32,000 nucleotides of DNA from an uncultured Flavobacteriaceae bacterium (GTDB taxonomy: Bacteria > Pseudomonadota > Alphaproteobacteria > Micropepsales > Micropepsaceae), in contig CAYMIJ010000001.1 in NCBI GenBank assembly GCA_964390465.1, positions 378,765-410,764 of the forward strand. Reading direction: 5' to 3'. The notes below the pieces were generated by a model, which saw nothing but the letters and a program-made list of their open reading frames with translations, did no database searches and had not been told where the DNA came from. Shown in pieces: positions 1,232-27,792 of this stretch; within the stretch, counting starts at the first letter, position 1, and each line of letters starts with the position of its first letter. The position numbers were made by a program, and so were the translations under genes.

Positions 1232-2431
1232 GTGACCAAAGTGCTGGAAGGGATCAGGGTTCTGGATTTTGGCCGCTACATCGCCGGGCCGTATTGCGCG
1301 GCGCTGATGGCCGATATGGGCGCTGAAGTCATCCGCATCGAAAAACGCGAAGGCAGCGAAGACCGCTACATGACGCCGATCATGCCGGGGGAAAAATCCA
1401 CCGAGCGCGAAGGCACGCTGTTCATGCAGATGAACCGCAACAAGCGCGGCATGACGCTGGACCCCATGAAGCCGGAAGGCCGCGCCATTGCACGCCGCCT
1501 CGTGGAAACGGCTGATGTCGTCATCGCCAATCTGCCGCCCGATACACTCAGCGCGATGGGCCTCGACTACCCCACGCTGTCGGCCATCAACCCGCGTATC
1601 ATCCTCACCACCGCCTCGGCCTTCGGGCATGGCGGGCCGTATTCCGACCGGGTTGGTTTCGATGGCATCGCGCAGGCCATGTGCGGGGCGGCCTACATGA
1701 CGGGCACACCCGATCAGCCCATGCGCGCTGCTGTGCCGTGGGTTGATTTCGGCACCGCCTCACTCTCGGCCTTCGGTACGCTGGCCGCCCTGATGGCGCG
1801 TGCAAAAACCGGGCGCGGTCAGCAGGTCGAAGGCGCTTTGCTGGCGACAGCGATCACCGTCGGCAATGGCGCCATCATGGAACAGGCGGCATTGGGCATC
1901 AATCGCGTCGCCTCGCTCAATCGCGGCCAGACAGCGGGTCCGTCCGATATCGTGCGCTGCAGGGATGGCTGGGTGCTGGTCGCGGTGAACGGCATGCCGC
2001 TGTTCAAACGCTGGGCGCGCATGGTCGGCGCTGAACATCTGGTCAACGATCCGCGCTTCGCCACCGATGAACTGCGCGGCGATCATGGCGAACATCTCTC
2101 GCGCATCATGTCGGATTGGGCGAAGGACAAGACCATGGCGGAAGCGCTGGAGGCGCTGGCCAAAGCGCGTGTGCCTGCAAACCCGGTCTATTCACCGCAG
2201 CAGGCGCTCGATGATCCGCACATCAAGGCCATGGGCTTCCTGCAGGACGTGCCCTATCCCGGCCTGCCGCAACCGGCGAAGGTCGCCACCACGCCCATCC
2301 GCCTCAGTGAGACGCCCGGCCGCATCGAACACCGCGCACCACTGCTTGGTGAACACACCGACGAGATTCTGAAAAGCATCGGCTATGACGAAGCGTCGAT
2401 CTCGGCGTTCCGCGCGTCGGGCGTGATCTGA
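1232..2431 (+). CDS. family III CoA-transferase (CaiB/BaiF family)
   Basis: 399 aa, GTG start. The N-terminus LEGIRVLDFGRYIAGPYCAALMADMGAEVIRIEK is the characteristic family III CoA-transferase motif, and the length is typical. Confidence 0.9.
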   Translation: MTKVLEGIRVLDFGRYIAGPYCAALMADMGAEVIRIEKREGSEDRYMTPIMPGEKSTEREGTLFMQMNRNKRGMTLDPMKPEGRAIARRLVETADVVIANLPPDTLSAMGLDYPTLSAINPRIILTTASAFGHGGPYSDRVGFDGIAQAMCGAAYMTGTPDQPMRAAVPWVDFGTASLSAFGTLAALMARAKTGRGQQVEGALLATAITVGNGAIMEQAALGINRVASLNRGQTAGPSDIVRCRDGWVLVAVNGMPLFKRWARMVGAEHLVNDPRFATDELRGDHGEHLSRIMSDWAKDKTMAEALEALAKARVPANPVYSPQQALDDPHIKAMGFLQDVPYPGLPQPAKVATTPIRLSETPGRIEHRAPLLGEHTDEILKSIGYDEASISAFRASGVI

Positions 2432-3684
2432 CGGCGGCGGATCAATACGCTCGCCAGCAGCAGCGCCAGCGAAAGCGGCACGATGCGATAGCTCATACCG
2501 GGATGGGCAAGCGTGTGTTCGGCAACCGCTTCATTGAAAAGGAAGCCCAGCATCAAAGGAACGGCAAGAGCAAACGACAGCTTCACGCCAGTCTTTGTGA
2601 TGTGCCGGGCACTGAGGAAGACTCCAACGGCCAGCGCCAGCGCAATGGCCGCTTTCCACCAATGTGCAAAGGTCACGGCAAAGGACGACACGAGCGCCGC
2701 ACCCGGTATCCAGCCATGAACCGGCGTCCAGCGCGTGAGATCGCCCCCGTTGAACAGATAGACCTTACCGCCCAACAATGAATAAGCCGCCGCGACGCCC
2801 CACTTCGCGGCCCAGAAGGCTGTGTAGCCCGCCATGACGGCCGCAAAGACGAGGCACACATCCAGCAACCGTATCGGGCGGCCATCACGCCAGGCGGATG
2901 CCGCCCAGCCCCACGCGCAAATGGCTGCAAGGCATTCGGGGTTGCAGAAGAAGTCAAAGAAATTATAGAGCGCGCCCGCAAGACCCGCAGCCACCAGAAG
3001 CGCCACGCCGCGCCAACGCGCAGCCACCAGCATGAAAGCTGCGCCGCCCGCCAGCATCACCGCGAACGATACGGCCTGCATCGGCAGCTGGCCCACCGCA
3101 ACCGTGTCCGTCAAAGTCCCTATGGCCAGTGTCAGAACCAGTGCAGGCCAAAAACCGACACGTCCGATCATCACGGCAAACAACAGCGCCAGCGCGCCCC
3201 ATACCAACCGCGCCGTGACCGCCTGAAGATCATCATAAGTGCCAGTGCTCAACACAGCGCGGTGCAGCAACAACGACCCATGCCAGTAGCGGGCATAGGT
3301 GAACCATGTTGTGTTGGTGCCTTCACCGCGCAGAACGGTTTCAAGCGCAGGGCAGATACCGCCGGCAGGGTCGGGCAGGATGGCTTCAGACCGGACGATG
3401 GCATCACGGGCCAGCGGCACGAACTCCTCACGCACCAGAATGGAAAGCCCGGCACATTCGGGATGATAGGCCGACAGCCTGACAGGATCAGACAGCACCG
3501 CATCGGCCATGCCGCGATCCGATCGCTGCGCGTCACCGATGGCGCGCGTGATCGCCTTGTGATCGGCCGCGTCGAAGGAGCGCAGAAGCGCGCCATAGCC
3601 CAGTGCCGCCAGCACGGACAGGATCAGTACCATTGCGCCAATGGCAGTCAGAATGTCACGGAATGAAATCACGCGGTCCTGCAT
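2383..3684 (-). CDS. polytopic integral membrane protein, unknown function
   Basis: ORF 2383..3756. It has one N-terminal TM helix, a hydrophilic domain of about 150 aa, then about 9 hydrophobic segments. I prefer the ATG at 3684 (MQDRVISF...) because it lies after the upstream stop at 3713; 3735 or 3756 are possible. The 3' end overlaps the convergent CoA-transferase by 49 nt. Confidence 0.55.
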   Translation of the reverse strand: MQDRVISFRDILTAIGAMVLILSVLAALGYGALLRSFDAADHKAITRAIGDAQRSDRGMADAVLSDPVRLSAYHPECAGLSILVREEFVPLARDAIVRSEAILPDPAGGICPALETVLRGEGTNTTWFTYARYWHGSLLLHRAVLSTGTYDDLQAVTARLVWGALALLFAVMIGRVGFWPALVLTLAIGTLTDTVAVGQLPMQAVSFAVMLAGGAAFMLVAARWRGVALLVAAGLAGALYNFFDFFCNPECLAAICAWGWAASAWRDGRPIRLLDVCLVFAAVMAGYTAFWAAKWGVAAAYSLLGGKVYLFNGGDLTRWTPVHGWIPGAALVSSFAVTFAHWWKAAIALALAVGVFLSARHITKTGVKLSFALAVPLMLGFLFNEAVAEHTLAHPGMSYRIVPLSLALLLASVLIRRRQITPDARNAEIDASS

Positions 3685-3712
3685 ACAGGGCTTGCGGCCC
3701 CAGCGCCATGCG

Positions 3713-5179
3713 TCAGGCGGCTTGTACAGCCTCATCCACCGCATGTTTGGCGGCAATCAGGCGGCGCTGCATCAGATCGGCTTCATTGCCGCCCAGCAAA
3801 ATGCGCGTCAGCTCGATCGAATGGTCCATCATGGCGTCAGCATTGGCGCGGTGGTGATCAGACGGCAAAGGCACATGATCAAGCATGCTTTCGGTGAACA
3901 GCCGCAGTCGTTCAGATGACTGCGACATCACCTTGTCGATCACACTGGAGAATGCTCCGGCCGCACCATGAGGCCGTGCTGCTGCCACCACGCGCGCATA
4001 GGTGATGGCGCGCGCGGCGCGCAAACGATCAAACGTTTTGGCCAGATCAGCCATTTTGCCGATGGCCCGTGAGCCAAACCCGCCTTTGCGTGCAAGCGGC
4101 AGACTATTGACGATATCTCGGCTGGCACGGCCAAGCATACGCTCCACTTCAGATGAAATCCCGGCCCGCGCGGCTGTCATGCGCTTGCCCCACGGGCCTT
4201 CGCGCTTGATCCCCATCTCGCGCACCATACCGGTCGAGGTGTTTCCAAACAGCGAGATGCAATCAATAACCGTATCAGCATCCATCTGGTCGCCGCGCAT
4301 GGGCTTCAACCTGTCAACGCTGTCTTCAATGTCAGACAGCAGCAGTTCGCCTGCGAACCCGGCATCGGTGCGGCTGATGAGCGCGTCATCCATCTTGCGC
4401 GAGATGGCACCGTTCAGCCGCAAGACCTCCCATGGATGATCCAGCCTGCCCATCAGCAAAAAAACCAGATAGGGCGCACAATGGGCATGATCCTGTGAAA
4501 CGGTTTCCCAAACCGCCTTCAGCGATTCGATATGTTCAGGCAGCAAGGCGTGGATGCGTTTGGGAAGGGTCTGCTGCAACTGCAGAATGAACGGACCGAC
4601 CTCCATCATCCGGGCCATATCATAGGCATCGCGTGCAATATCGCCGCTGCCCAGCAGGCGCGCCGCAGCCGCAGCCCGTGGATGTGGCGTGGAAGGCTCA
4701 GGAATTTCAGCAAGGATGGCAGCAGCCGCATCGGCCTGAAGCAAAGCGACATCGCGGTCTATGTTGTCCATCTGCCCAGACGCTATCTTGCCGCTCAACG
4801 CCGTCAGCGCATCCATCGCCGCTGGTGGCAGAAGACCGTTTGAAAGCCAGCTCCAGACCGGCATGACAGATGTGGCGGCAATGCGCCCCCTCACCTTCCG
4901 GCGCCGGGGCGTATGCTGGACCAGATCATCGAATGGCGCGAACAGAAGCTTGCGCGGCGAGACAATCTGGGGGGCCCGTCCGCCGGGTTCGGCCAACCGA
5001 GGCGTCAGCGCTTTCAACAGATCATCATGCGGCAAGCTGCCGCCGCCGGCCCTGTCGGCTTCAAGCGCCTCGGCCAACTGGACGGCAATAGAGATGGGTA
5101 TGGCCGCAAAAAACCGGCTGAGACGCTCGACTTTGGTGTCACTCAGCGTCACTTGAATCCGGCTCCGGCGCTCTCCCAT
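3713..5179 (-). CDS. hypothetical soluble protein, 488 aa, no recognised domain
   Basis: Long ORF with coding-like composition, co-directional with and directly downstream of the sensor kinase gene. No TM segments and no catalytic motif that I recognise. Confidence 0.6.
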   Translation of the reverse strand: MGERRSRIQVTLSDTKVERLSRFFAAIPISIAVQLAEALEADRAGGGSLPHDDLLKALTPRLAEPGGRAPQIVSPRKLLFAPFDDLVQHTPRRRKVRGRIAATSVMPVWSWLSNGLLPPAAMDALTALSGKIASGQMDNIDRDVALLQADAAAAILAEIPEPSTPHPRAAAAARLLGSGDIARDAYDMARMMEVGPFILQLQQTLPKRIHALLPEHIESLKAVWETVSQDHAHCAPYLVFLLMGRLDHPWEVLRLNGAISRKMDDALISRTDAGFAGELLLSDIEDSVDRLKPMRGDQMDADTVIDCISLFGNTSTGMVREMGIKREGPWGKRMTAARAGISSEVERMLGRASRDIVNSLPLARKGGFGSRAIGKMADLAKTFDRLRAARAITYARVVAAARPHGAAGAFSSVIDKVMSQSSERLRLFTESMLDHVPLPSDHHRANADAMMDHSIELTRILLGGNEADLMQRRLIAAKHAVDEAVQAA

Positions 5180-10675: not shown

Positions 10676-11869
10676 TCAGGAAACGACGGCGCGGTCGTGG
10701 ACCCGCCGCCAGTTGGTGCCATCGGAAAAGGCCAGCGTTGCCCCGCCCGCCTCGTTGCTGACATGGATGATCGCACCGGCCCCCAGCACCAAGGCTGATG
10801 GCACGCCCGCAACCGTATATGTTTTCACGCGCACCGCGCCATCAACATCCAGCCTGGCTGCAGGCTCCGCGATACCGATGCCAATATTGCCATTGCAGGC
10901 AATCCGCATTTTTTCTGTTGGTGCACTGGCCGTTGAGCTGTTGTCGATCGTCTCAAAGCGCAATGATGTTCCACACATCGTGTTGGTGGAATCATCGCCT
11001 ATGGCATGGACGATACGGCCCAGAGCGCGTCGCACGGGCAGGTTATATGTTGTGCCACGAAACACGATGGCCTGACCAAAACCGTTATATTCCTGCGATG
11101 CCACGTTAACGGCTTCAAGCGTCATAATATTGACCGGCGTTGTCCGCCGCAAAATCGTGCCATCAGATACGGACGCAAAAACATGCAACGGTGTTTCAGG
11201 TTGCGTCATGCCCATCCCGACATAGCCGTGGCTTCGCGCTACAGTAAGTGCCGTTTGCCACACTGAGCCGTCAGCACTCACCTTTACGCTGAAATCATCG
11301 CTGCCAGTCAGGCCGAACTCCGCACGCCCGGAATAATTCGTCTGGAACAGAAACGACGCCGTGTCGGTGGCCGTTTCCTTGTTCAGCTTGTGCTGCACAT
11401 CGCCATTGCCGCCATAGGCTGCATATTCAGCTGTGTGCAGAATGGTGGGCGCACGCACGGCGACCCGGTTGGTGTTGTCGGCAATGGTGCCGACACCCAG
11501 CATGGAGAGATTCTGCAATGCAGAAATCACATTTTGCAAGCTCTGCCATGTACTGCCTGTCCAGTAGACGAGCGCACTTTCGTCCACCACGAAGCCTATC
11601 CAGCCGGGCTGGGGCGCCCGGAACAGCCAGATGCCATCGCTCCAGTATGCCACCCTGCCGGACTGTCCAGCCCAAAGGCCTGTCGCTGAGGCCCCAACAA
11701 TATAGCGTGCGCCCTCTGGCGGGCTGACGGGCGGTGCGCTCAGATCGCGGTCCAGAATGGTCAGTTGCGTCAGCGCATCCAGCACCAGCAGCGCCTCGTT
11801 ATGCGTGACATGTTTCTGCGCCTGCCCCGCTTCCATCAGCGGCAGTTTCAGGTTCATTGTTTCGGTCAT
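10676..11869 (-). CDS. DUF2793-domain tail-fibre-like protein
   Basis: The N-terminus LKLPLMEAGQAQKHVTHNEALLVLDALTQL...ARYIVG...WAGQSGRVAYWSDGIWLF is the DUF2793 pattern. The C-terminal part has the fibre-type motif RIACNGNIGIGIAEPAARLDVDGAVRV. Starts 9 nt after the g15 stop. Confidence 0.8.
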   Translation of the reverse strand: MTETMNLKLPLMEAGQAQKHVTHNEALLVLDALTQLTILDRDLSAPPVSPPEGARYIVGASATGLWAGQSGRVAYWSDGIWLFRAPQPGWIGFVVDESALVYWTGSTWQSLQNVISALQNLSMLGVGTIADNTNRVAVRAPTILHTAEYAAYGGNGDVQHKLNKETATDTASFLFQTNYSGRAEFGLTGSDDFSVKVSADGSVWQTALTVARSHGYVGMGMTQPETPLHVFASVSDGTILRRTTPVNIMTLEAVNVASQEYNGFGQAIVFRGTTYNLPVRRALGRIVHAIGDDSTNTMCGTSLRFETIDNSSTASAPTEKMRIACNGNIGIGIAEPAARLDVDGAVRVKTYTVAGVPSALVLGAGAIIHVSNEAGGATLAFSDGTNWRRVHDRAVVS

Positions 11870-11878
11870 TGAAAACTC

Positions 11879-14800
11879 TCAGATCGCCAGCCAGGCATCG
11901 CGCGGTGCGCCCGCACCATAGCGGGCGCTGATCTGCGTTATGCGCACCGGCAAGGACGATGACGCACCATCCGTACTTTGCATGGCGGCTGTATAAAGAA
12001 AGGAAGGGGTGTTCACGTTCGCCACACGCGACTGCGTCGGGCCGATCTCGATGCGATAATTTTCCGCCTCATCCAGCGGCACCTCCGTCTCACTCCAGCG
12101 TCCGGGATCATCACGCGCCCGCCGCACCCACGAGATCAACACATCGCCATTCGCCTGACGCAGCGCCTTCAACTGGCACACGCGCCATGGCTTCATGGCC
12201 AGCGCTTCATAGGTCAGCGACAGTGTGTCCCACGCCACATCATCCACCGGCATATGTGTTGGCCCGACCTTCAGGTGCAGCACTGCGCCCATATCTGAAG
12301 GCGCAATCGGCAGGCGCATCACATGCTCGTCCAGCAGCACGAAGCGCGCGCCGACATTCAGGTTCCTGGCCATATTGATCTCACTGCCCGCCTGACCGCG
12401 CAGAAATTGCGAAAGCCGCCATGTGTCGGGCGCAATCAGACTGGCTTCCGCAAACTGGAAAACCTCCCAGCGCCCCGGCGCTGTTTCAACCGCCGCGCGG
12501 TTCGCACCATTAAGAACACGCAGTGGGTCCACACGCGACAGCCCGCCACCATACAGAATGACATCCAGATGCGTCGCCCGATCCCACACATGCAAGGAAC
12601 CTTGCGGAAAACTGCTGGCCGTTTCGCCCACCACGGCACGGTGCGGCACGGTCATCCAGTCCGTATACGGACCATTATCGCAATCCGCATGCAACACACT
12701 CACCGCCCCGGGCCAGGGCTCGGCGAAGGCAGCGATGAAAAGGCCATCCTCTCCTGCCTGTGCGGCAAGTGCGGGCACATCCATCACCGCAACAAAAGGT
12801 GGCCCACTCACATGCGGGGCAAGACCCGGTGTCCCGTCAAGCTCAGCGTGCGTGCCTTGGTAGAGATGGCCATGCCACACACCGGCCTCGCAACGCCGCA
12901 CGCCGTGCTCCTCCACGCGCGTCAGACGGAAGCAGCGCACAACGCCATGCAGTGTCAGCTGCACGAGATCGCCGGGCTCCAATGCGATAAGACTTGGCGG
13001 CAAAGCGAAATGTGCCGCCTCCCGCGCGGCCCAGTGTTCCTGCAACAGCCGCTGTGCCACGCGTCCGGCTTCGGCTTTGCACATCGCCAGCGGTAATTGC
13101 ACCGGCATCACCTTGGCAGATGGCGCAGCGCTCATGCGGGCTTCGGCAGCACCCGGTGCATAGTCTGCTATCGTGTCGATGAACGATACTTTGATCGCGC
13201 CCGGCAGCCCCGCCGTTTCCGCACGTGTGATCATTGGCGCGGCGACAGCTCCCTCCTCAGCTTCAGCCAGTCGCTCCATCGGTACGCTCACCGCATAACC
13301 GTCACCGCTATGAAAGAAGCGAATACGACCGGCGCTTTCTGAAGCCTCAATGGCAAAGGCCATCATCAATGGCGACAGCGCCTCGCGCGCGCTCATCACC
13401 CGGTCGAGCGCATAGCCGGCAACACTCCCGCGCAGACCCGTCACATCGACATCACTCAATCCGGCGCACGTGCAGATCTCACGCACCAGCGTGCCTAATG
13501 GTGCAGCCCCGGCACGGCCATTCAGCCAGTGGCCGGTGCGCCAGAGCGGGCCATCTGACCACACATCATCGCGCAGCGGCCAGTCAGGGAATGGCCGTGC
13601 ATCCCAAGCCCACACATAAGCGTGGCTGGTTTCAATCATCAATCGTCCGTTGACGGATGAAGCCGGGTTGCGTCCTGCCTCGCGCCAGTATCCCAGCAGC
13701 GCCTCGATACCGGCGCGTTGAGAAAGGTCATCACGCACACCCGACGAAAAGTAAGGCAAGCCGCTTTCGGATGATCGCGGGTCGTAAAACACATTGGGCT
13801 GGTTGGTGCTTTTGTCGAGCGCCCCAAACCCACATTCCGTGAAGCGGAACGGCTTGGATTGCGGCACCCAATCTGTCGCTGAGGCGCTTTCAGTGCCATC
13901 CGGCCTGTTATGATGCGGGTTCAGCCACCAGTTGCGGAAGTCCTTGGCGCGCCATATCCAGGGCTTGCCATAGGCCCCGTCAGAAATGGTGCTGCGCGTC
14001 TTTGCATCACGCGCCACATCGCTGGCGTAAAACCAGTCATAGGCCTCACCGCCTTCGACATGCGCTTTCAGAGCAGCACGGTCATAGGGTGATCCGTCAT
14101 CGCCATCACGCCGGTCTGAAAGCGGCGCATAAACATCCACCCCGATGAAATCGATATTGCCATCTGCCCATAGCGGATCGAGGTGAAAGAAGAACGCGCC
14201 GCTGCCTGCATCATGTCCGCGCCACTCGGTCCAATCAGCGGCGTAAGAGATGCGCGTCTCAGCCCCCACGATGGCACGCACTTCAGCGGCCAGTGCTTTG
14301 AGTTTCGCAACAGCGGGATAAACGCCAGACGCCGAACGCAATGTTGTCATCCCGCGCAGTTCGCTGGCGATCAGAAAGGCATCGACACCGCCCGCCTCCG
14401 CGCACAGATGCGCATAGTGGCGGATCATCCGCCGCAATCCCCATGTCCCATCAAAGAACGCGTCAATCTGACTGGCGGCAGCGGCGCTCATATCCGGCGA
14501 GCCAGCCCTTCCCGGCGCAGGCATGCAGGTAATGCGTCCGCGCCAGGGGAATGCGCCCTGTGCCGTGCCGCCATAAGGGTCGGGCAAAGCGTTGCCCGGC
14601 GGCACATCCATCAGGATGAAGGGGTAGAACATCACTTCCAGCCCACGCGCTTTCAACGCGCGGATGGCAGCGATCGCCGCAGCATCGTCCGGCGTGCCGC
14701 CATAATTGGGGCGGCCACTGGTCTGGCTCACCTGATAGGCGCTCGCCCGCGTCACCTGTTCCACACGCCACGCGCCGGGCCGGTTTCGCTTGGCATTCAG

Positions 14801-15694
14801 CTCAACACCCGGCCTGATCTGGCAGACGCCAGCGCGCAGATCATCGCCGAACCACGCCACCACCAGCGCCACGCGCTTCACTTTGGGAAGGGCTGCCTGC
14901 AACTGATCCAGCGAGGCTTCAAAGTCTGTTTTGCCCGCGCGATTATTGACGTTTTCGGCAATCCATTTGCCCCGCCCCGCATCACGCAGCACGCGGCTGG
15001 GCGACAGCGCAAATTCGCCTGAGCCGGGAATGAGGCACACGGCCTCGACCACCTCCTCCATTGTGCCTGCCTCACCGCTCAGCGGGCGCATCACCTCAAA
15101 TGAAAGCTGCGGCACGCGGTTGCCGAACGGCTCCAACGGCAGGTTTTCAAACACCACATAGGCTGTGCCACGAAAGGCCGGGCCACCTGCACCCTCGGTC
15201 AGCTCGATCAGCGGATCGGCGGGTTGATCCTCCGTGCCCGGATGAATGCGCATGATAACGCCATCAAGGGTCATCGGCTTGCCGTCAGCCCATACACGCC
15301 CGATGCCGCCGATCACACCTTCGCACAGACCCACGGCGAAGCTGGCACTGTAGCTGTAACTGGTCACACGCGGCCCGGCCTTGCCGCCACCCTTGCGCGA
15401 GGCGGTTTCCCTAAACCGCGCCGCCCAGATGATCTGCCCTGCCAGACGCATGGTGCCCCATACGCGTGGCACGGGTGCGCCCTGTGTCGAAGCCTGCACC
15501 TGAAGTTCTTTCAGGCGCGGCCCTTCAACACGGCTTGCCCCGCGCAACATCGCATCGACATGCGATCCGGCATAAGCGCCGATCGCCCCGCCAATCGCCG
15601 CGCCGGTGATGGTCTGGCCAAGAATGGTCAACCCTTCGGGCAGCAGCGCATTGCCGATCGCCTGACCGGCAAGGCCAAGAACAAGTGAAGCCAT
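11879..15694 (-). CDS. GTA g15 host-specificity / baseplate multidomain (megatron-like) protein
   Basis: 1271 aa. Gly/Ala-rich N-terminus followed by VEGPRLKELQVQASTQGAPVPRVWGTMRLAGQIIWAARF, typical of g15 homologues. Size and position after g14 match. Confidence 0.92.
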   Translation of the reverse strand: MASLVLGLAGQAIGNALLPEGLTILGQTITGAAIGGAIGAYAGSHVDAMLRGASRVEGPRLKELQVQASTQGAPVPRVWGTMRLAGQIIWAARFRETASRKGGGKAGPRVTSYSYSASFAVGLCEGVIGGIGRVWADGKPMTLDGVIMRIHPGTEDQPADPLIELTEGAGGPAFRGTAYVVFENLPLEPFGNRVPQLSFEVMRPLSGEAGTMEEVVEAVCLIPGSGEFALSPSRVLRDAGRGKWIAENVNNRAGKTDFEASLDQLQAALPKVKRVALVVAWFGDDLRAGVCQIRPGVELNAKRNRPGAWRVEQVTRASAYQVSQTSGRPNYGGTPDDAAAIAAIRALKARGLEVMFYPFILMDVPPGNALPDPYGGTAQGAFPWRGRITCMPAPGRAGSPDMSAAAASQIDAFFDGTWGLRRMIRHYAHLCAEAGGVDAFLIASELRGMTTLRSASGVYPAVAKLKALAAEVRAIVGAETRISYAADWTEWRGHDAGSGAFFFHLDPLWADGNIDFIGVDVYAPLSDRRDGDDGSPYDRAALKAHVEGGEAYDWFYASDVARDAKTRSTISDGAYGKPWIWRAKDFRNWWLNPHHNRPDGTESASATDWVPQSKPFRFTECGFGALDKSTNQPNVFYDPRSSESGLPYFSSGVRDDLSQRAGIEALLGYWREAGRNPASSVNGRLMIETSHAYVWAWDARPFPDWPLRDDVWSDGPLWRTGHWLNGRAGAAPLGTLVREICTCAGLSDVDVTGLRGSVAGYALDRVMSAREALSPLMMAFAIEASESAGRIRFFHSGDGYAVSVPMERLAEAEEGAVAAPMITRAETAGLPGAIKVSFIDTIADYAPGAAEARMSAAPSAKVMPVQLPLAMCKAEAGRVAQRLLQEHWAAREAAHFALPPSLIALEPGDLVQLTLHGVVRCFRLTRVEEHGVRRCEAGVWHGHLYQGTHAELDGTPGLAPHVSGPPFVAVMDVPALAAQAGEDGLFIAAFAEPWPGAVSVLHADCDNGPYTDWMTVPHRAVVGETASSFPQGSLHVWDRATHLDVILYGGGLSRVDPLRVLNGANRAAVETAPGRWEVFQFAEASLIAPDTWRLSQFLRGQAGSEINMARNLNVGARFVLLDEHVMRLPIAPSDMGAVLHLKVGPTHMPVDDVAWDTLSLTYEALAMKPWRVCQLKALRQANGDVLISWVRRARDDPGRWSETEVPLDEAENYRIEIGPTQSRVANVNTPSFLYTAAMQSTDGASSSLPVRITQISARYGAGAPRDAWLAI

Positions 15695-22100: not shown

Positions 22101-23270
22101 TTATTCTTCGTTTGTTGCGCCGTAGCCCACCGCCGCACGCTTCTCGTCGCGGTTGATGAAACGCGCCGCCTCAAGCTGCGCCCATAACTGCGCGCGTTCA
22201 GCCCGCAAGGCAGGGATGGCATCTTCATCGGGTACCAGCGCGACATCACCCATCAGGGGCGAAAGCCAGTGCGACAGCGCCTCGCCCAACCGCGACGCCA
22301 GCGGCAGCACGCTCTGGCGCCAGAAGGCCAGGTTGGCAGACTCGTAATTGGCATAGGTCGCATCGCCCGGAATACCGAGCAGCATGGGCGGCACGCCAAA
22401 CACCATCGCGATATCGCGCGCACTCGCATTGCGGCCGCTTTCGAAATCCATTTCCTGCGGCGTCAGGCTCATCGGCTTCCAGTCGAGCCCGCCTTCCAGC
22501 AGCAAGGGCCGCCCGGCATGGCGTGTGCCGCTGCGGCCTTCTTCCAGTTCCGCCTTCAGGCGCGTGAACTGTTCATCGCTCAGGCTTTCGTGTCCCTGCG
22601 GCCCTTTGTAAATCAGCGCGCCTGAAGGCCGCGCGGCATTATCGAGCAGCGCCTTGTTCCACGCCGACATCGCATTATGCGTGTCGATCGCCTGCGCCAC
22701 CGCTTCAACGGGCGACAGACCATAATGGTCATCGACCGGATGCACACGGCGCACATGACACACCGGCATGAAGCCATCGGCTTCGCGCGTCAGGCGCAGC
22801 TCGCGCCCACCCGCCGTATAGACATAAGCCTGCGGCCAGCCATCGCGGCCCGGCACCACGCGCATGCGGTCAGATCGCAGCGCATACAGCTCGCGCACCG
22901 CGCTATCCAACCGCACCGCCTCGATATACGCATTGCCCGAAAGCAGCAGCGCGACATAAAGCTGCTCCATCAAAGCGCGCCCGGTCTGCACATCATTGGG
23001 GCGCGTCACCAATGCACGCAGCGGATGATCCTCCACCTCGTGCGCGCCCTGCATGGCCGTGAACTGCACGCTTGCGGCGGCTTCTGCCGTCATGGCAATG
23101 GCACGATGCGCGACCGGGTTTTTCATGAAGGCCTCGCGCGCCAGGCTCGCATAATCGCGCGGCGTCCAGCGTGGCTGACCGCCACCCGTCAGCGCGATCA
23201 GCGGCCCGGTGCGGCTGGCCTTGGCTTCCGGCGCGCGCGTCCGCGCCCTTCGCGAGAAGAGAGAGATCAT
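22101..23270 (-). CDS. GTA g3 portal protein (HK97 family)
   Basis: ORF 22101..23393, trimmed to the ATG at 23270 (MISLFSRRARTRAPEAKASRTGPLIAL...), which matches the usual N-terminus of GTA portals. 389 aa. Confidence 0.93.
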   Translation of the reverse strand: MISLFSRRARTRAPEAKASRTGPLIALTGGGQPRWTPRDYASLAREAFMKNPVAHRAIAMTAEAAASVQFTAMQGAHEVEDHPLRALVTRPNDVQTGRALMEQLYVALLLSGNAYIEAVRLDSAVRELYALRSDRMRVVPGRDGWPQAYVYTAGGRELRLTREADGFMPVCHVRRVHPVDDHYGLSPVEAVAQAIDTHNAMSAWNKALLDNAARPSGALIYKGPQGHESLSDEQFTRLKAELEEGRSGTRHAGRPLLLEGGLDWKPMSLTPQEMDFESGRNASARDIAMVFGVPPMLLGIPGDATYANYESANLAFWRQSVLPLASRLGEALSHWLSPLMGDVALVPDEDAIPALRAERAQLWAQLEAARFINRDEKRAAVGYGATNEE

Positions 23271-23296
23271 CTGGATTCCAGTGCTTGCTTGGATGT

Positions 23297-23328
23297 CAAA
23301 AAACTTTTCTCCCCGTTTGCGGGGGAGA
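23297..23328 (-). terminator. terminator/attenuator-like hairpin in the leader upstream of portal
   Basis: Minus-strand RNA forms UCUCCCC-CGCAAAC-GGGGAGA (7-bp stem, 23308-23328), followed by AAAG and UUUUUU (23298-23303). The 4-nt spacer before the U-run makes it non-canonical. Confidence 0.35.
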
Positions 23329-23397
23329 GGCACCACGAAGTGGTGAAGGGGCTCATTGCGTAACGATGTGACGGCGGCAGAAGCCCGCCTCACCCAG

Positions 23398-23458
23398 TAC
23401 CGGATATAATTCCTATATACGGCTCGACCGTTCGCATGTCAAGCCATAAAGGATTATT
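23398..23458 (-). promoter_or_regulatory. promoter-like repeat copy A (between TerL stop and portal)
   Basis: Minus strand reads AATAATCCTTT-ATGG-C-TTGACA(23442-23437)-N17-TATATA(23419-23414)-GGAATTATATCCGGTA. It is 51/61 identical to copy B. Confidence 0.55.
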
Positions 23459-23459
23459 T

Positions 23460-24755
23460 TCACAACTCTCGCACTTTTGGCTCACGGCCCTGCCCCATCA
23501 GATCACGCACCGCCCATACCAGCGCATCGACGCGGTCGGGGCTGGCTGAATAATCACGGCTGCCAAACAGGCACATTTCGTCTTCCAGTGCGGCGAAAGT
23601 GCCGACGTGATGCGCCTGGCCCTTTTCATACGCGACCGAAACCATCTCGGCGCGCGTCTGCTTGTCGGAACGTGCATGCACCCGCACCACGCGCCGTTCA
23701 CCGCATACCTGACGCAGCAATCCGCTGATCAGTTCACCACCCTGATTGGTCTCGGCGATGATCGCACCGGCCTCGTGCGTTTCGGCAGCGCGGCGCACGG
23801 CTTCGGCCCACCCTGCCGGGGTCAGGCCCTGAACGCTGGCATCATGCAGAACATAGATCTCGCCCTTCGCGCAGTGCCCCGCCACGATGATGCCGCAACG
23901 GTCGGCCCGCGCGCCCGATGTGACCGGCGGATCAACCGCCACCACCACGCGCTTCAACGCCGGGGCCGCAGTCACGCGGCCTGCGTCGATCCAGCCGCGC
24001 TGCCACATCGCATCGTCCGGATCGCTCAGCATGTCGGCCATCAATTCCTGACGGCCAAGGCGCGTGCCGCCATACATGGCCTGCATCTGCTCAAGATAAG
24101 ACGGCGCAAGGTATTGCGCATTGTCGAACGTGGTCGCGCGGGTTGTCACGGTTGATGGCAGCGCCAGCAGACGCTTCAGCGCCGACACGGGCCTTGGCGT
24201 GGTCGTCACCAGCATACGCGGATGCGTGCCAAGGCGCAGTGTCATCTGTGCCATATCAAGTGCCATGTCGGCGCGCCGCCATTTGGCGAACTCGTCGGCC
24301 CAGATGAGGTCGAATTGCGGGCCGCGCAGCTGTTCGGGATCATCTGCGGAAATCACATCGCCCGTCGTCCCGCTATCCCAGAATAATTTGCGGCGCGACT
24401 TCACAAAATCGGGCCGCATATTGGGCAGCAGAGGCGACATCAGGCCAGACTGGCCCTCGATCATCACATTCGCCGCATCGTGCATGGTTTCACCAATCAA
24501 CCCGATGCGCTGCACCAGCCCCCGGCTGGCGAGCTGGTTCACCCATTCTGCACCCGCGCGGGTCTTGCCGGCACCGCGCCCTGCCAGCAGCACCCATTGC
24601 CGCCATTGGCCTTTGGGTTCGTCCTGATGGGGATGGGCATGCAGCCACCATATGCTTTGTAGGGCCTCATATTTTTCCGGCGTCAGGGAGTTGCGATACG
24701 CTTGGCGCTGCGCCCTCGTCATCTTCGCCAGCACCGCCATCTTCAAAAATCGCAT
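23460..24755 (-). CDS. GTA g2 large terminase (TerL)
   Basis: 431 aa. Walker A-like LLAGRGAGKTRAGAEWV, Walker B-like LIWADEFAKW, and a C-terminal nuclease-like domain. Alternative starts at 24740 and 24722. Confidence 0.95.
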   Translation of the reverse strand: MRFLKMAVLAKMTRAQRQAYRNSLTPEKYEALQSIWWLHAHPHQDEPKGQWRQWVLLAGRGAGKTRAGAEWVNQLASRGLVQRIGLIGETMHDAANVMIEGQSGLMSPLLPNMRPDFVKSRRKLFWDSGTTGDVISADDPEQLRGPQFDLIWADEFAKWRRADMALDMAQMTLRLGTHPRMLVTTTPRPVSALKRLLALPSTVTTRATTFDNAQYLAPSYLEQMQAMYGGTRLGRQELMADMLSDPDDAMWQRGWIDAGRVTAAPALKRVVVAVDPPVTSGARADRCGIIVAGHCAKGEIYVLHDASVQGLTPAGWAEAVRRAAETHEAGAIIAETNQGGELISGLLRQVCGERRVVRVHARSDKQTRAEMVSVAYEKGQAHHVGTFAALEDEMCLFGSRDYSASPDRVDALVWAVRDLMGQGREPKVREL

Positions 24756-25239
24756 AGATCCTGTTCACAATCGCCATATTGGTGCCGGTGGCATGCCGCG
24801 CTTTGATGCCTGGCACTTTGGTCATGGACGCAATGGAACGGCCCAATTGCGTCAGCTTGCGCAGCATTTTCAGATGCTCGGCCTGGACCGCCTGTTCCTG
24901 CTTCAGCGTTTTGGCTTGCGACTGTGCGCGGGCATCCAGCCGTTCCTGACGGCGCACGGCTTTGTCGATGGATTTCTGCAAGGCCTGACTGATCTCTGCG
25001 ATGCAGCCACTGACGTCGCCGGGGTCGCTGACCGACTGGCACATACGGTGCCAGCGCCCGGCCGCCCGTCGGCTGAAAAAGGCGGGCTTGGTCACCCCAT
25101 GCCGCTGCACAAGGCTGACCACAGGTTCATCGGTTGTCATGTAGTCGCGCTTGATCGCCTCCCAGTCCGGGGCGGGATTCAGCGCAGGGTCGGGCGCACG
25201 GCGCGATGTGCGCCGTGGCGGGGATGCTGTGTCATTCAT
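24667..25239 (-). CDS. g1-position small-terminase-like protein (HTH N-terminus plus coiled coil)
   Basis: 190 aa directly upstream of TerL. DWEAIKRDYMTTDEPVVSLVQRHGVTKPAFFSRRAAGRW resembles the HTH of small terminases. It has a central coiled coil and an acidic C-terminus, and its 3' end overlaps g2 by 56-89 nt depending on the g2 start. Confidence 0.55.
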   Translation of the reverse strand: MNDTASPPRRTSRRAPDPALNPAPDWEAIKRDYMTTDEPVVSLVQRHGVTKPAFFSRRAAGRWHRMCQSVSDPGDVSGCIAEISQALQKSIDKAVRRQERLDARAQSQAKTLKQEQAVQAEHLKMLRKLTQLGRSIASMTKVPGIKARHATGTNMAIVNRIYAIFEDGGAGEDDEGAAPSVSQLPDAGKI

Positions 25240-25331
25240 GAAAAGCCCACTGGAAAAATGGCGCGTCCGCTCACATCTGACACGCCGTTAAACGAAAACG
25301 GCCGGGCACTGCCCAGCCGCTGAAGACCTGA

Positions 25332-25392
25332 TACCGGATATAATTCCTATATACGCATCCCCCGCGCGCCTGTCAAGGCGAAAAGGATTATT
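25332..25392 (-). promoter_or_regulatory. promoter-like repeat copy B (upstream of g1)
   Basis: Minus strand reads AATAATCCTTT-TCGC-C-TTGACA(25376-25371)-N17-TATATA(25353-25348)-GGAATTATATCCGGTA. Only this copy extends into the inverted repeat AAAGGAT-TATT-ATCCTTT (25382-25399). Confidence 0.6.
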
Positions 25393-25462
25393 ATCCTTTC
25401 AGGGGTGGTGCGGCGGTGGGTGCGTCCAGGACGGGGAACCTGAACGCACCCTGCCGGTACTG

Positions 25463-25496: not shown

Positions 25497-25781
25497 TCAG
25501 CGAACGGATTGCTTTTCTTCGGCGATGGCAGAGGCGAGTGCATCAAGGCCCTGCACGGCCAGATCCTGCGCGCCATCCACCGCATTCATACCTGCGACAC
25601 ACAGGTCAGGATTGGACAGGCACACATCGGCCACCTTTTGATAGGTTTCATCAGCCGCGACCGACGAAGCCGTCGAAGCCGCTGATGACGCCGTGCGGGT
25701 TACGGCATCTGCCGCCGGATTGCCGGGCAGGAAAAACGCCACGACCGAAATCCAGAAGGCAGCACGAAACAGGTTCAGCAT
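25497..25781 (-). CDS. small secreted protein, Ala/Ser-rich, unknown function
   Basis: 94 aa. Signal-like N-terminus MLNLFRAAFWISVVAFFLPG, two Cys (CLSNPDLC), and a GGAG about 11 nt upstream of the ATG. Confidence 0.5.
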   Translation of the reverse strand: MLNLFRAAFWISVVAFFLPGNPAADAVTRTASSAASTASSVAADETYQKVADVCLSNPDLCVAGMNAVDGAQDLAVQGLDALASAIAEEKQSVR

Positions 25782-25840
25782 TGAGGCGGGGTCTCCGTTC
25801 TATGCTGACCAATATGCCCGACATCTCCTGAATTGCTGTG

Positions 25841-26040
25841 AACCAGTCCAGTAAAATTAGAATATTGAAAATTTTCGCTAATCGTCCATTTAATATACAA
25901 AACGATCTATGCTATTATTTGATTGATTTGTATTCTATTTATCTGACAATTTTTAGATAACATTCGGAAAATTTGCATAAAATACGTTCTATTAACCTGT
26001 GTAAATGCATGTAAACCATAACCTCATTCAATCATCCTTA
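25841..26040. other. strongly AT-rich divergent intergenic tract
   Basis: Hand count gives 47 G+C in 180 nt (25861-26040), about 26% GC, in an otherwise GC-rich window. Contains the inverted repeat TTATCT-N10-AGATAA (25939-25960) and direct TGTAAA repeats 10 bp apart (about 26000-26016). Confidence 0.8.
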
Positions 26041-26088
26041 ACACCGCCGGGGCAAAAGTTAGTCCTAACGGTGGGCTAACGATCAAGA

Positions 26089-27792
<1,704 letters not shown>

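Follow-up and report, generated by a model that had tools for sequence, protein, structure and literature searches.

The 32,000-nt stretch of DNA analysed here, called the window throughout, comes from an uncultured bacterium placed in the Micropepsaceae (Alphaproteobacteria; positions 378,765–410,764 of contig CAYMIJ010000001.1, assembly GCA_964390465.1). On its minus strand it carries a gene cluster of the type that encodes the gene transfer agent (GTA) of Rhodobacter capsulatus (RcGTA), as judged by Pfam matches to Terminase_6N and Terminase_6C, Phage_portal, Peptidase_S78, Phage_capsid, a tape-measure fragment, GTA_TIM, Rcc01698_C and DUF2793. The cluster shares with RcGTA the order of its genes (a g1-like gene, the large terminase TerL, portal, protease and capsid, on to GTA_TIM and DUF2793) and a predicted promoter before g1; downstream of the portal gene the protease, capsid and tail genes lead to the GTA_TIM protein and then to the DUF2793 protein. 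A short DNA element is found twice in this cluster, once before the open reading frame (ORF) in the g1 position (copy B) and once between TerL and the portal gene (copy A). We suggest, as the likeliest of the explanations that we have weighed, that the element is part of a conserved promoter cassette of about 95 bp, present here as two paralogous copies, which makes two co-regulated units, g1–TerL and portal onward.

The first-pass annotation of the window placed copy B about 100 nt before the g1-position ORF and copy A directly 3′ of the TerL stop codon, with the remaining junctions short or overlapping, and this description of the gene context holds. It also regarded the 189-nt gap between TerL and the portal gene as unusually long. 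The gap is long within its own cluster but ordinary across 67 other GTA-like loci, where the median is about 175 nt and the gap exceeds 250 nt in 21 and 1 kb in 14; it is the contents of the gap, not its length, that are unusual.

Copies A and B form a direct repeat (23398–23461 and 25332–25395, minus strand) with 53 of 64 nt identical (83%), and in a repeat search they were the longest direct repeat of the window (64 nt, spacing 1934). For the ungapped 61 bp aligned in the first-pass annotation our recount also gives 51/61, and re-reading the sequence agrees with the −35, 17-nt spacer and −10 described there. On the minus strand copy B reads AATAATCCTTT-TCGC-C-TTGACA-N17-TATATA-GGAATTATATCCGGTA (25392–25332) and copy A reads AATAATCCTTT-ATGG-C-TTGACA-N17-TATATA-GGAATTATATCCGGTA (23458–23398), the differences lying in the N4 block and at 7 of the 17 spacer positions. 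The −35 hexamer is a 6/6 match in both copies and both spacers are exactly 17 nt, while the −10 hexamer TATATA matches TATAAT at 4/6 positions, keeping the key A at position 2 and having A for T at position 6, and fits the alpha-type TATAT pattern. Alphaproteobacterial RpoD promoters follow a consensus of approximately CTTGAC-N17-CTATAT. Measured against it, the window copies have CTTGAC (6/6), the 17-nt spacing and GTATAT (5/6), together with an A/T-rich block at about −57 to −46; they are unlike ordinary housekeeping promoters in the invariant 16-nt block after the −10, which is kept across genomes and paralogous copies. A second TATAT begins 11 nt past the −10 TATAT, around +1, and as a −10-like element it lacks the conserved T of the last position. 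From the predicted starts, leaders of 102 nt (g1) and 137 nt (portal) are expected.

These features are far from what chance would give. The 22-nt core TATATAGGAATTATATCCGGTA is exact in both copies and has two matches in the window even with three mismatches allowed, against 0.00 expected from shuffles, and the pattern TTGAC-N17-19-TATAT has two sites in the window, again copies A and B, against 0.01 expected. The core is 33% GC in a window of 62% GC. A perfect TATAAT on the opposite strand was considered as an antisense promoter and rejected, as inspection showed nothing like a −35 at 17 nt upstream of it. There is no CtrA box (TTAA-N7-TTAA) in the whole window and no GANTC, the CcrM methylation site, in the core. 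In the window at large GANTC is strongly depleted (36 sites, where shuffles predict about 116), and one site, at 23274–23278, lies immediately before the portal start codon. The coordinates of the features are collected in Table 1.

Table 1. Genes, cassette parts and leader hairpins in the window (all on the minus strand; cassette parts and transcription starts as predicted)
Feature	Position	Strand	Evidence or remark
g1-like ORF, 190 aa, first gene of unit 1, overlaps TerL start	24667..25239	-	no family match; weak tblastn similarity to g1-position ORFs of L038 and SO-S41
TerL (large terminase, g2-like), last gene of unit 1	23460..24755	-	Terminase_6N + Terminase_6C; database copy P0001, 420 aa, 100% identical
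TerL stop codon	23462-23460	-	
Portal gene, first gene of unit 2	22101..23270	-	Phage_portal 4e-85; start at 23270 backed by alignment to the 68%-identical SO-S41 portal
GTA_TIM host-specificity protein, within unit 2	11879-15694	-	GTA_TIM 1e-129, Rcc01698_C
DUF2793 protein, end of unit 2	10676-11869	-	Pfam
Cassette copy B, g1-like gene downstream	25306..25397	-	nhmmer envelope 25397-25306, E=7e-22; repeat pair; exact core; TTGAC-N-TATAT match
Copy B AT-rich block AATAATCCTTT	25392-25382	-	
Copy B -35 TTGACA	25376-25371	-	
Copy B 17-nt spacer	25370-25354	-	
Copy B -10 TATATA	25353-25348	-	
Copy B invariant block GGAATTATATCCGGTA	25347-25332	-	
Copy B predicted +1	A25341	-	
Cassette copy A, portal downstream	23370..23468	-	nhmmer 23468-23370, E=1.4e-24; repeat pair; exact core; TTGAC-N-TATAT match
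Copy A AT-rich block	23458-23448	-	
Copy A -35 TTGACA	23442-23437	-	
Copy A spacer	23436-23420	-	
Copy A -10 TATATA	23419-23414	-	
Copy A invariant block, then CTGGGTGAGGCGGG	23413-23398	-	
Copy A predicted +1	A23407	-	
Hairpin B1, g1 leader: AGCGGCTGGGC-AGT-GCCCGGCCGTT (11 pairs), then TTCGTTTAAC	25287..25321	-	top terminator-like site; RNAfold-based scan dG -20.3; leader fold
Hairpin B2: GGCGTGTC-N11-GACGCGCC, then ATTTTTCC; just before g1 start 25239	25252..25286	-	minimum free energy fold of 25240-25346; weaker terminator-like candidate
Hairpin A, portal leader (~+80 to +100): TCTCCCCCG-CAAA-CGGGGAGA, then AAAGTTTTTT	23298..23328	-	second-ranked terminator-like site; leader fold z = -2.5

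Relatives of the cassette were collected in three ways (loci are given by their L numbers where they need to be told apart). A scan of one genome for each of about 185,000 species with the pattern ATAGGAATTNTATCCGGTA returned 14 stretches, five of which hold a full cassette and come from three alphaproteobacterial genomes, namely the complete genome of Alphaproteobacteria bacterium SO-S41 (AP024629), a Micropepsaceae metagenome-assembled genome (MAG) and a Pseudomonadota MAG, the other stretches being core-only chance matches from other phyla. A metagenome scan returned 17 stretches, mostly chance matches, and added L023 and L031 to the family, and contigs with TerL homologues added L034, L035, L036 and L038. 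A hidden Markov model (HMM) built from 13 copies recovers all members of the family and has copies A and B as its sole matches in the window. The cassette is thus represented by 16 distinct copies from at least seven related alphaproteobacterial genomes or contigs. Its carriers have TerL proteins 56–62% and portal proteins 64–69% identical to those of the window, and the closest relative of the window TerL is 62% identical.

Across the family the most conserved parts are CTTGAC, the 17–18-nt spacing, TAyATA and the following GGAATTATATCCGGTA. Of the 16 copies 14 have TTGAC (the exceptions being L010 with TTGATG and L035 with TTGCCG), the −10 varies to TACATA and CATATA, and the 22-nt core is exact in nine copies and has one or two changes in four more. 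Downstream, most GTA-linked copies continue yNrGGTGAGGCG, and GGTGAGGCG is present at about +14 to +22 in most copies. A GACC-N7-GGTC symmetry involving the −35 flank is seen in 4/16 copies and is absent from those of the window. The spacer deserves a comment, as it was described from the two window copies as a diverged block (8/15 identical in a sub-block, 10/17 in our recount of the whole). It has indeed diverged between these two, but family-wide it is GC-rich and semi-conserved (GCGCGCGGTCGAA), which could not be seen from two copies. Likewise, the dyad proposed over the predicted +1 is present but weak (8/12), and the invariant block is longer (about 24 nt) and asymmetric, with the semi-conserved GGTGAGGCG downstream of it. 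The view that selection on sites, rather than recent duplication, explains the likeness of the two copies gains from the family, in which the cassette is kept where TerL is only 56–62% identical and the core is exact in 9/16 copies; within the window, the 7 differing positions in the 17-nt spacer argue that the copies are not a recent duplication.

In two genomes substitutions inside the cassette are shared between copies, ATGTCC in both copies of L034 and CCAGAA in both copies of L036. Such co-variation within a genome would be expected if the copies track one trans-acting factor or are homogenised, and in L034 even the variable columns of the two copies are 76% identical. An attempt to date the duplication by clustering orthologous against paralogous copies was abandoned, as the identity matrix of the variable columns has no signal except the homogenisation in L034.

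Every GTA-linked copy aims at the next gene, 50–190 nt from its start. A copy stands before the g1-position gene in four genomes (the window, SO-S41, L034 and L036) and after TerL, before the portal gene, in seven genomes or contigs (the window, SO-S41, L034, L035, L036, L038, where it is diverged, and L023). In two of these other genes have come to lie between TerL and the portal-side copy: a TonB_C gene in SO-S41, and in L035 two opposite-strand genes, one of ArsR type and one for a glyoxalase. The portal gene of L035 cannot be reached from a g1 promoter without crossing these antisense genes, so that a separate portal promoter is effectively required. The division into g1–g2 and portal onward that was proposed from the window is supported by the TerL–portal copies of seven genomes or contigs and by the intervening genes of SO-S41 and L035, and these arrangements lead us to regard two co-regulated units as a more probable organisation of the cluster than a single operon.

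SO-S41 has two tandem copies about 300 nt apart between the TonB_C gene and the portal gene (L006:5685-5592 and L006:5396-5294), with a 49-aa ORF annotated antisense between them, and thus three copies in its GTA cluster. In L002 and L037 TerL stands alone, without g1 or portal. A degenerate half-cassette, consisting of the AT block, TTGAC and the GC spacer, is found in L038 (2318-2370, with the −10 lost), L002 (2634-2689) and L037 (2726-2780); in all three it lies in the NMT1–DUF1254 intergenic region and is aimed at TerL across the opposite-strand genes DUF1254 and DUF1214, and it may be a stranded former g1 promoter.

The bracketing of g1–TerL by direct repeats in four genomes could also be read as a pair of recombination targets flanking the terminase module, a switch by site-specific or homologous excision, or the repeats might be a neutral dispersed sequence or a recent, functionless duplication. 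Extra copies elsewhere in the genome and the likeness of the L034 copies even in variable columns, which suggests gene conversion, would suit such accounts. We nevertheless hold them to be the least probable of all. No recombinase gene lies near the cluster, the window copies differ in their spacers as noted above, and the conservation across genomes of the promoter hexamers in particular would be left unexplained. A dispersed repeat of the repetitive extragenic palindromic (REP) kind, or one resembling miniature inverted-repeat transposable elements, is rejected on copy number, as the 4.4-Mb genome of SO-S41 has two exact-pattern matches with a single near-match next to them and other genomes have one or two, and on the lack of a true match in IMG/VR.

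Full cassettes are also found at four loci outside GTA clusters (L007:3351-3456, L008:790-687, L010:2270-2372 and L031:7688-7587), L007 belonging to the same MAG as the L034 cluster, and L008 and L010 to one other MAG. These orphans aim at the 3′ end of a convergent gene, encoding an OYE-type oxidoreductase (L007 and L008), an RNase R-like protein (L010) or a 150-aa protein (L031). The first-pass annotation held that a generic repeat found at many unrelated loci would speak against a promoter of the GTA cluster; the element proves not to be exclusive to GTA clusters, but only one or two orphans were seen per genome. They could give short transcripts, drive antisense transcription, act as decoys or be relics. 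The syntenic orphans of L007 and L008 are informative: they share about 62 of 70 cassette nt, while their flanks cannot be aligned upstream or past about +12 until the convergent gene is reached, and this confinement of conservation to the cassette argues that selection acts on a DNA element from about −60 to +12 and not on the body of a transcript.

That point bears on two further alternatives. The conserved unit could act as RNA, either as a small RNA (sRNA) family or as a shared 5′-leader, AUAUCCGGUA..GGUGAGGCG with the Shine-Dalgarno-like AGGUGA, recognised by a protein, the ribosome or an sRNA, while the promoter itself would be an ordinary one. The orphans L007 and L010, each followed by a good intrinsic terminator, do resemble a promoter with a 70-nt transcript and a terminator, and GGTGAGGCG is semi-conserved downstream of most GTA-linked copies. 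We find this very improbable, since the strongest conservation lies upstream of +1, the transcribed parts of L007 and L008 share nothing alignable beyond about +12, the leaders have no common fold and two of them fold no better than shuffles, and Rfam searched at permissive thresholds has nothing relevant in the window region or in seven loci. For the orphans themselves an sRNA reading is rejected, the cassette alone being shared between L007 and L008.

The second alternative is that the cassette is a protein-binding or architectural DNA site, bound for example by a nucleoid-associated silencer attracted to TA-rich DNA or by a regulator acting at a distance, and that its likeness to promoter hexamers is coincidental. 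The core does stand out by its AT-richness (33% GC) from a genome of 62% GC, conservation ends about 12 nt past the predicted start, and the orphans face convergent genes and drive no ORF. Yet CTTGAC, the 17–18-nt spacing and TAyATA are conserved over 16 copies while the sequence between them varies, every GTA-linked copy is oriented to the next gene at promoter-like distance (50–190 nt), and the portal gene of L035 has no other plausible promoter; we consider an architectural role improbable.

The cassette is specific to this clade. A portal-profile scan of IMG/VR gave 80 RcGTA-like loci (L044–L123), with portals 55–70% identical to that of the window, and in these the cassette HMM has no match at E ≤ 0.01. 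In 66 distinct GTA loci the best sigma-70-like score within 250 nt before the portal gene did not exceed 9/12, which equals coding-sequence controls, while the window scores 12/12 on the same scale. In none of the 15 GTA loci with enough upstream sequence was the region upstream of g1 repeated in the TerL–portal gap, although the positive control, L034, was detected; one of the 15 shares merely a REP-like palindrome between the two places. A duplicated promoter as a general feature of GTAs is thus rejected. So is an origin from phage: three pattern matches in IMG/VR lack a −35 and lie in AT-rich contexts, and nhmmer matched only the 20-nt core, in one of them, which points to chance. A single-protein portal scan returned nothing. 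Full-text searches of the literature turned up neither a promoter described inside a GTA cluster or before its portal gene nor any account of GTAs in Micropepsaceae. The TerL–portal junction is a recurrent breakpoint, a soft spot, of RcGTA-like clusters. Several provirus calls in IMG/VR start exactly at the portal gene.

The leaders that would be transcribed from the two copies contain hairpins that the first-pass annotation did not note (Table 1), and the two best terminator-like sites in a scan of 18 kb of the window directly follow copies A and B. Hairpin B1 (25321-25297; about +21 to +45) starts 11 nt after copy B ends and has the tail TTCGTTT; the tail of B2 is AUUUUU. Within 5.1 kb of L034 there are just two terminator-like sites, and each is the hairpin that follows one of its copies, the one in the portal leader, CCTCCCCCG..CGGGGGAGG+AAAATTATTT, being the counterpart of hairpin A at the same place. 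Hairpin A could be the terminator of g1–TerL, an attenuator of the portal unit, or a REP-like palindrome. By eye, the portal leader of the window (23271-23352) also contains a 29-codon ORF, ATGAGCCCC..., with no obvious ribosome-binding site, whose stop overlaps the portal start as ATGA. In Variibacter gotjawalensis, whose TerL is about 50% identical, no cassette is found (L043:2320-2471); its g1 leader region has GGAAAATAATC..TATAGGAAAATA, TTGACA, a −10 and the canonical intrinsic terminator GGGCGGC-GGTCGA-GCCGCCC followed by TTTTTCG, then GTGAGGCGGGCGTG at the start codon, and its 247-nt TerL–portal gap holds REP-like hairpins only.

How the cassette might work is best discussed beside the nearest known system, the GafY/IHF/GafZ circuit of Caulobacter crescentus. 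There the promoter PgtaT is activated by GafY and IHF and controlled by GafZ antitermination, GafZ loading between the −35 and the −10 and reading through a terminator between TerL and portal (Tran & Le 2024, PMC11150451). The Caulobacter promoter has one mapped start, a degenerate −35 (AATCAT) and −10 (TATCTTT); there is no portal promoter, and the TerL–portal junction holds the terminator terGTA and four IHF sites (PMC11150451). A consensus −35 makes this promoter constitutive and independent of its activator (PMC11150451). The window has in common with Caulobacter an RcGTA-type cluster with the terminase first, the TerL–portal junction as a regulatory boundary, a long structured 5′ leader, a possible logic of terminator read-through and a conserved element within the core promoter, which in Caulobacter is the factor-binding ZBE between −35 and −10. 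It differs in that both hexamers are near-consensus, the cassette is duplicated before the portal gene, and the invariant block covers −12 to +10 rather than the spacer alone. GC-richness apart, the cassette does not resemble the ZBE palindrome GCGCCCG-CTGGCGC in sequence and, with TTGACA where Caulobacter has a degenerate AATCAT, it is not classed as a promoter of that type.

The RcGTA cluster is a single operon with a promoter upstream of g1, activated by GafA, and a second, homologous predicted promoter before g3 (portal) sets the window apart from that single-promoter model. A functional analogy, and no more than that, may be drawn with the lambdoid PR′/Q system, which has a Q-binding element, a sigma-dependent pause close to the promoter caused by a −10-like element in the initially transcribed region, and the terminator tR′. 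The likeness consists in a strong promoter, a conserved element at the core promoter, a second −10-like TATAT around +1, a terminator-like hairpin within about 20–100 nt and a long cluster of structural genes downstream. Unlike in lambda, terminators are not universal among the cassette copies, and the lambda late operon is served by one such promoter.

Read from the sequences in this way, the cassette has a consistent anatomy, orientation and position relative to the genes, is conserved and is restricted to a clade. Its parts are an AT-rich block where an UP-element would lie (about −57 to −46), the CTTGAC −35, the spacer GCGCGCGGTCGAA, TATATA, the invariant block to about +10 and GGTGAGGCG, and we infer two RpoD-type promoters, at which RpoD holoenzyme would initiate near A25341 and A23407. 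As both hexamers are near-consensus, activity would not be limited by recruitment of RNA polymerase, and as a consensus −35 renders the Caulobacter promoter constitutive, a near-consensus GTA promoter would have to be controlled in another way. The most evident candidate for the control site is the invariant block that extends from the −10 as far as about +10. We propose that a clade-specific trans-acting factor may read this block (−12 to +10) at both copies, so that both modules would be switched on together.

As to the step that is controlled, we lean tentatively towards post-initiation control, slightly ahead of repression at an operator. Transcripts would stop at the leader hairpins or U-tracts except where a GafZ- or Q-type antiterminator has engaged the polymerase at the cassette, and the second copy would load polymerase anew for the portal-onward module, whose products are needed in far greater amounts. 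Antitermination is favoured on account of the leader terminators, the GafZ precedent in Caulobacter, the conservation extending into initially transcribed DNA and the second TATAT. A more specific version, in which the cassette is the loading site of a processive antiterminator of the Q/GafZ kind, polymerase pauses on the second TATAT, the invariant block recruits a GTA-specific factor by which polymerase becomes resistant to the leader terminators, and the site is duplicated to re-arm polymerase at the head–tail module, we put forward as speculative and rather unlikely. In that case the orphans, whether as harmless units of promoter plus terminator, as decoys or as antisense drivers, would respond to the same switch.

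Simple repression of the same two promoters is the simpler account and one that we take seriously; taken by itself we think it unlikely, yet nearly as likely as post-initiation control. Intrinsically strong promoters would be kept silent until GTA induction by a dimeric or tandem repressor over the −10 and +1, possibly also bound to the upstream AT block, and the leader hairpins would be incidental, being REP elements, stabilisers of the mRNA or the terminator of the preceding unit. The invariant block overlaps the −10 and +1, a classic position for a repressor, TATAT is repeated 11 nt apart and GGAATTATATCC forms an 8/12 dyad; near-consensus hexamers imply a need for negative control, and more than half of the leaders lack a U-tract on their hairpin. 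By position weight matrix (PWM), the upstream block is core-like in the third SO-S41 copy (22.5 of 31 bits), the L034 portal copy (16.8) and L023 (12.6), with shuffle p ≤ 0.0015 for each. Against repression, the two copies of the window score only 0.2 and −6.6 bits for this second site. The dyad is weak as well, and the block that is conserved is asymmetric, has a length of about 24 nt or more and reaches into transcribed sequence. The best terminator-like sites of the window and of L034, directly after the copies, would be left unexplained, and no repressor gene is conserved beside the clusters, where the small upstream ORFs differ between genomes. As a general feature, a second operator in the upstream AT block is rejected: the PWM-plus-shuffle analysis is convincing in three to four copies, the window's not among them.

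Several observations weigh against the interpretation that we prefer. Within the window, the sequence covered by this search, no gafA, gafY, gafZ, Q-like or repressor gene was recognised, and no small regulator gene is conserved upstream of the clusters, the small ORFs found there being unrelated between genomes. L038 has only the portal-side copy and lacks that before g1, and the orphan copies drive no recognisable gene. TATATA ends in A, and a promoter scan that demands a final T omits both sites; the alphaproteobacterial consensus that TATATA would fit is the rhizobial motif CTTGAC-N17-CTATAT. A hairpin with a U-tract is present in 6 of the 15 leaders of the RNAfold-based scan (the other scan alone adds a seventh, that of the L034 portal leader), and several portal-leader hairpins resemble generic REP-type palindromes common in the intergenic DNA of these genomes. 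Finally, a processive antiterminator would render a second promoter unnecessary.

Some further features of the window are recorded here. An intergenic region of about 300 bp at 25797-26122 is very AT-rich, with 60-mers down to 20% GC, and is flanked by a 94-aa ORF on the minus strand (25497-25781) and, on the plus strand, by a divergently oriented gene for a PAS histidine kinase (26089-27792). The best NCBIfam match of this kinase is the cell-cycle kinase DivJ, at 309 bits, far under the 1000-bit cutoff. The CtrA phosphorelay controls GTAs in other organisms, and in that light a DivJ-like kinase adjoining the GTA cluster is suggestive. Inside the GTA_TIM gene, at 13512-13600, is an inverted repeat with 30-nt arms that are 80% complementary and 29 nt apart. 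Beyond the two-component system past the end of the GTA cluster lie two large minus-strand ORFs of 457 and 488 aa (2383-5179) that have no match in Pfam or NCBIfam; the unannotated ORFs of the window searched against NCBIfam gave no match.

To our knowledge, regulation of GTAs has been dissected in a few models only, namely Rhodobacter, Dinoroseobacter, Caulobacter and Bartonella, and the cluster has been treated there as one operon with a weak, activator-dependent promoter. The clade related to Micropepsales described here points to a different design, a near-consensus promoter used twice, with an invariant 24-bp core, one for each functional module. The finding adds to known biology and does not amount to a new kind of system. 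It would offer a simple account of how packaging enzymes and structural proteins could be made at different levels and yet be jointly switched on, as the second promoter would make the structural module yield more than the packaging enzymes do. One carrier of the cassette, SO-S41, is a named strain whose genome is complete, so that direct tests can be made there, and the 24-bp core, as bait, and two predicted promoters ready for reporter fusions offer a way to the regulator of this unstudied GTA lineage. If the cassette should be the loading site of an antiterminator, this would be a GTA control circuit unlike both the RcGTA and the Caulobacter models, with a compact and searchable DNA signature.

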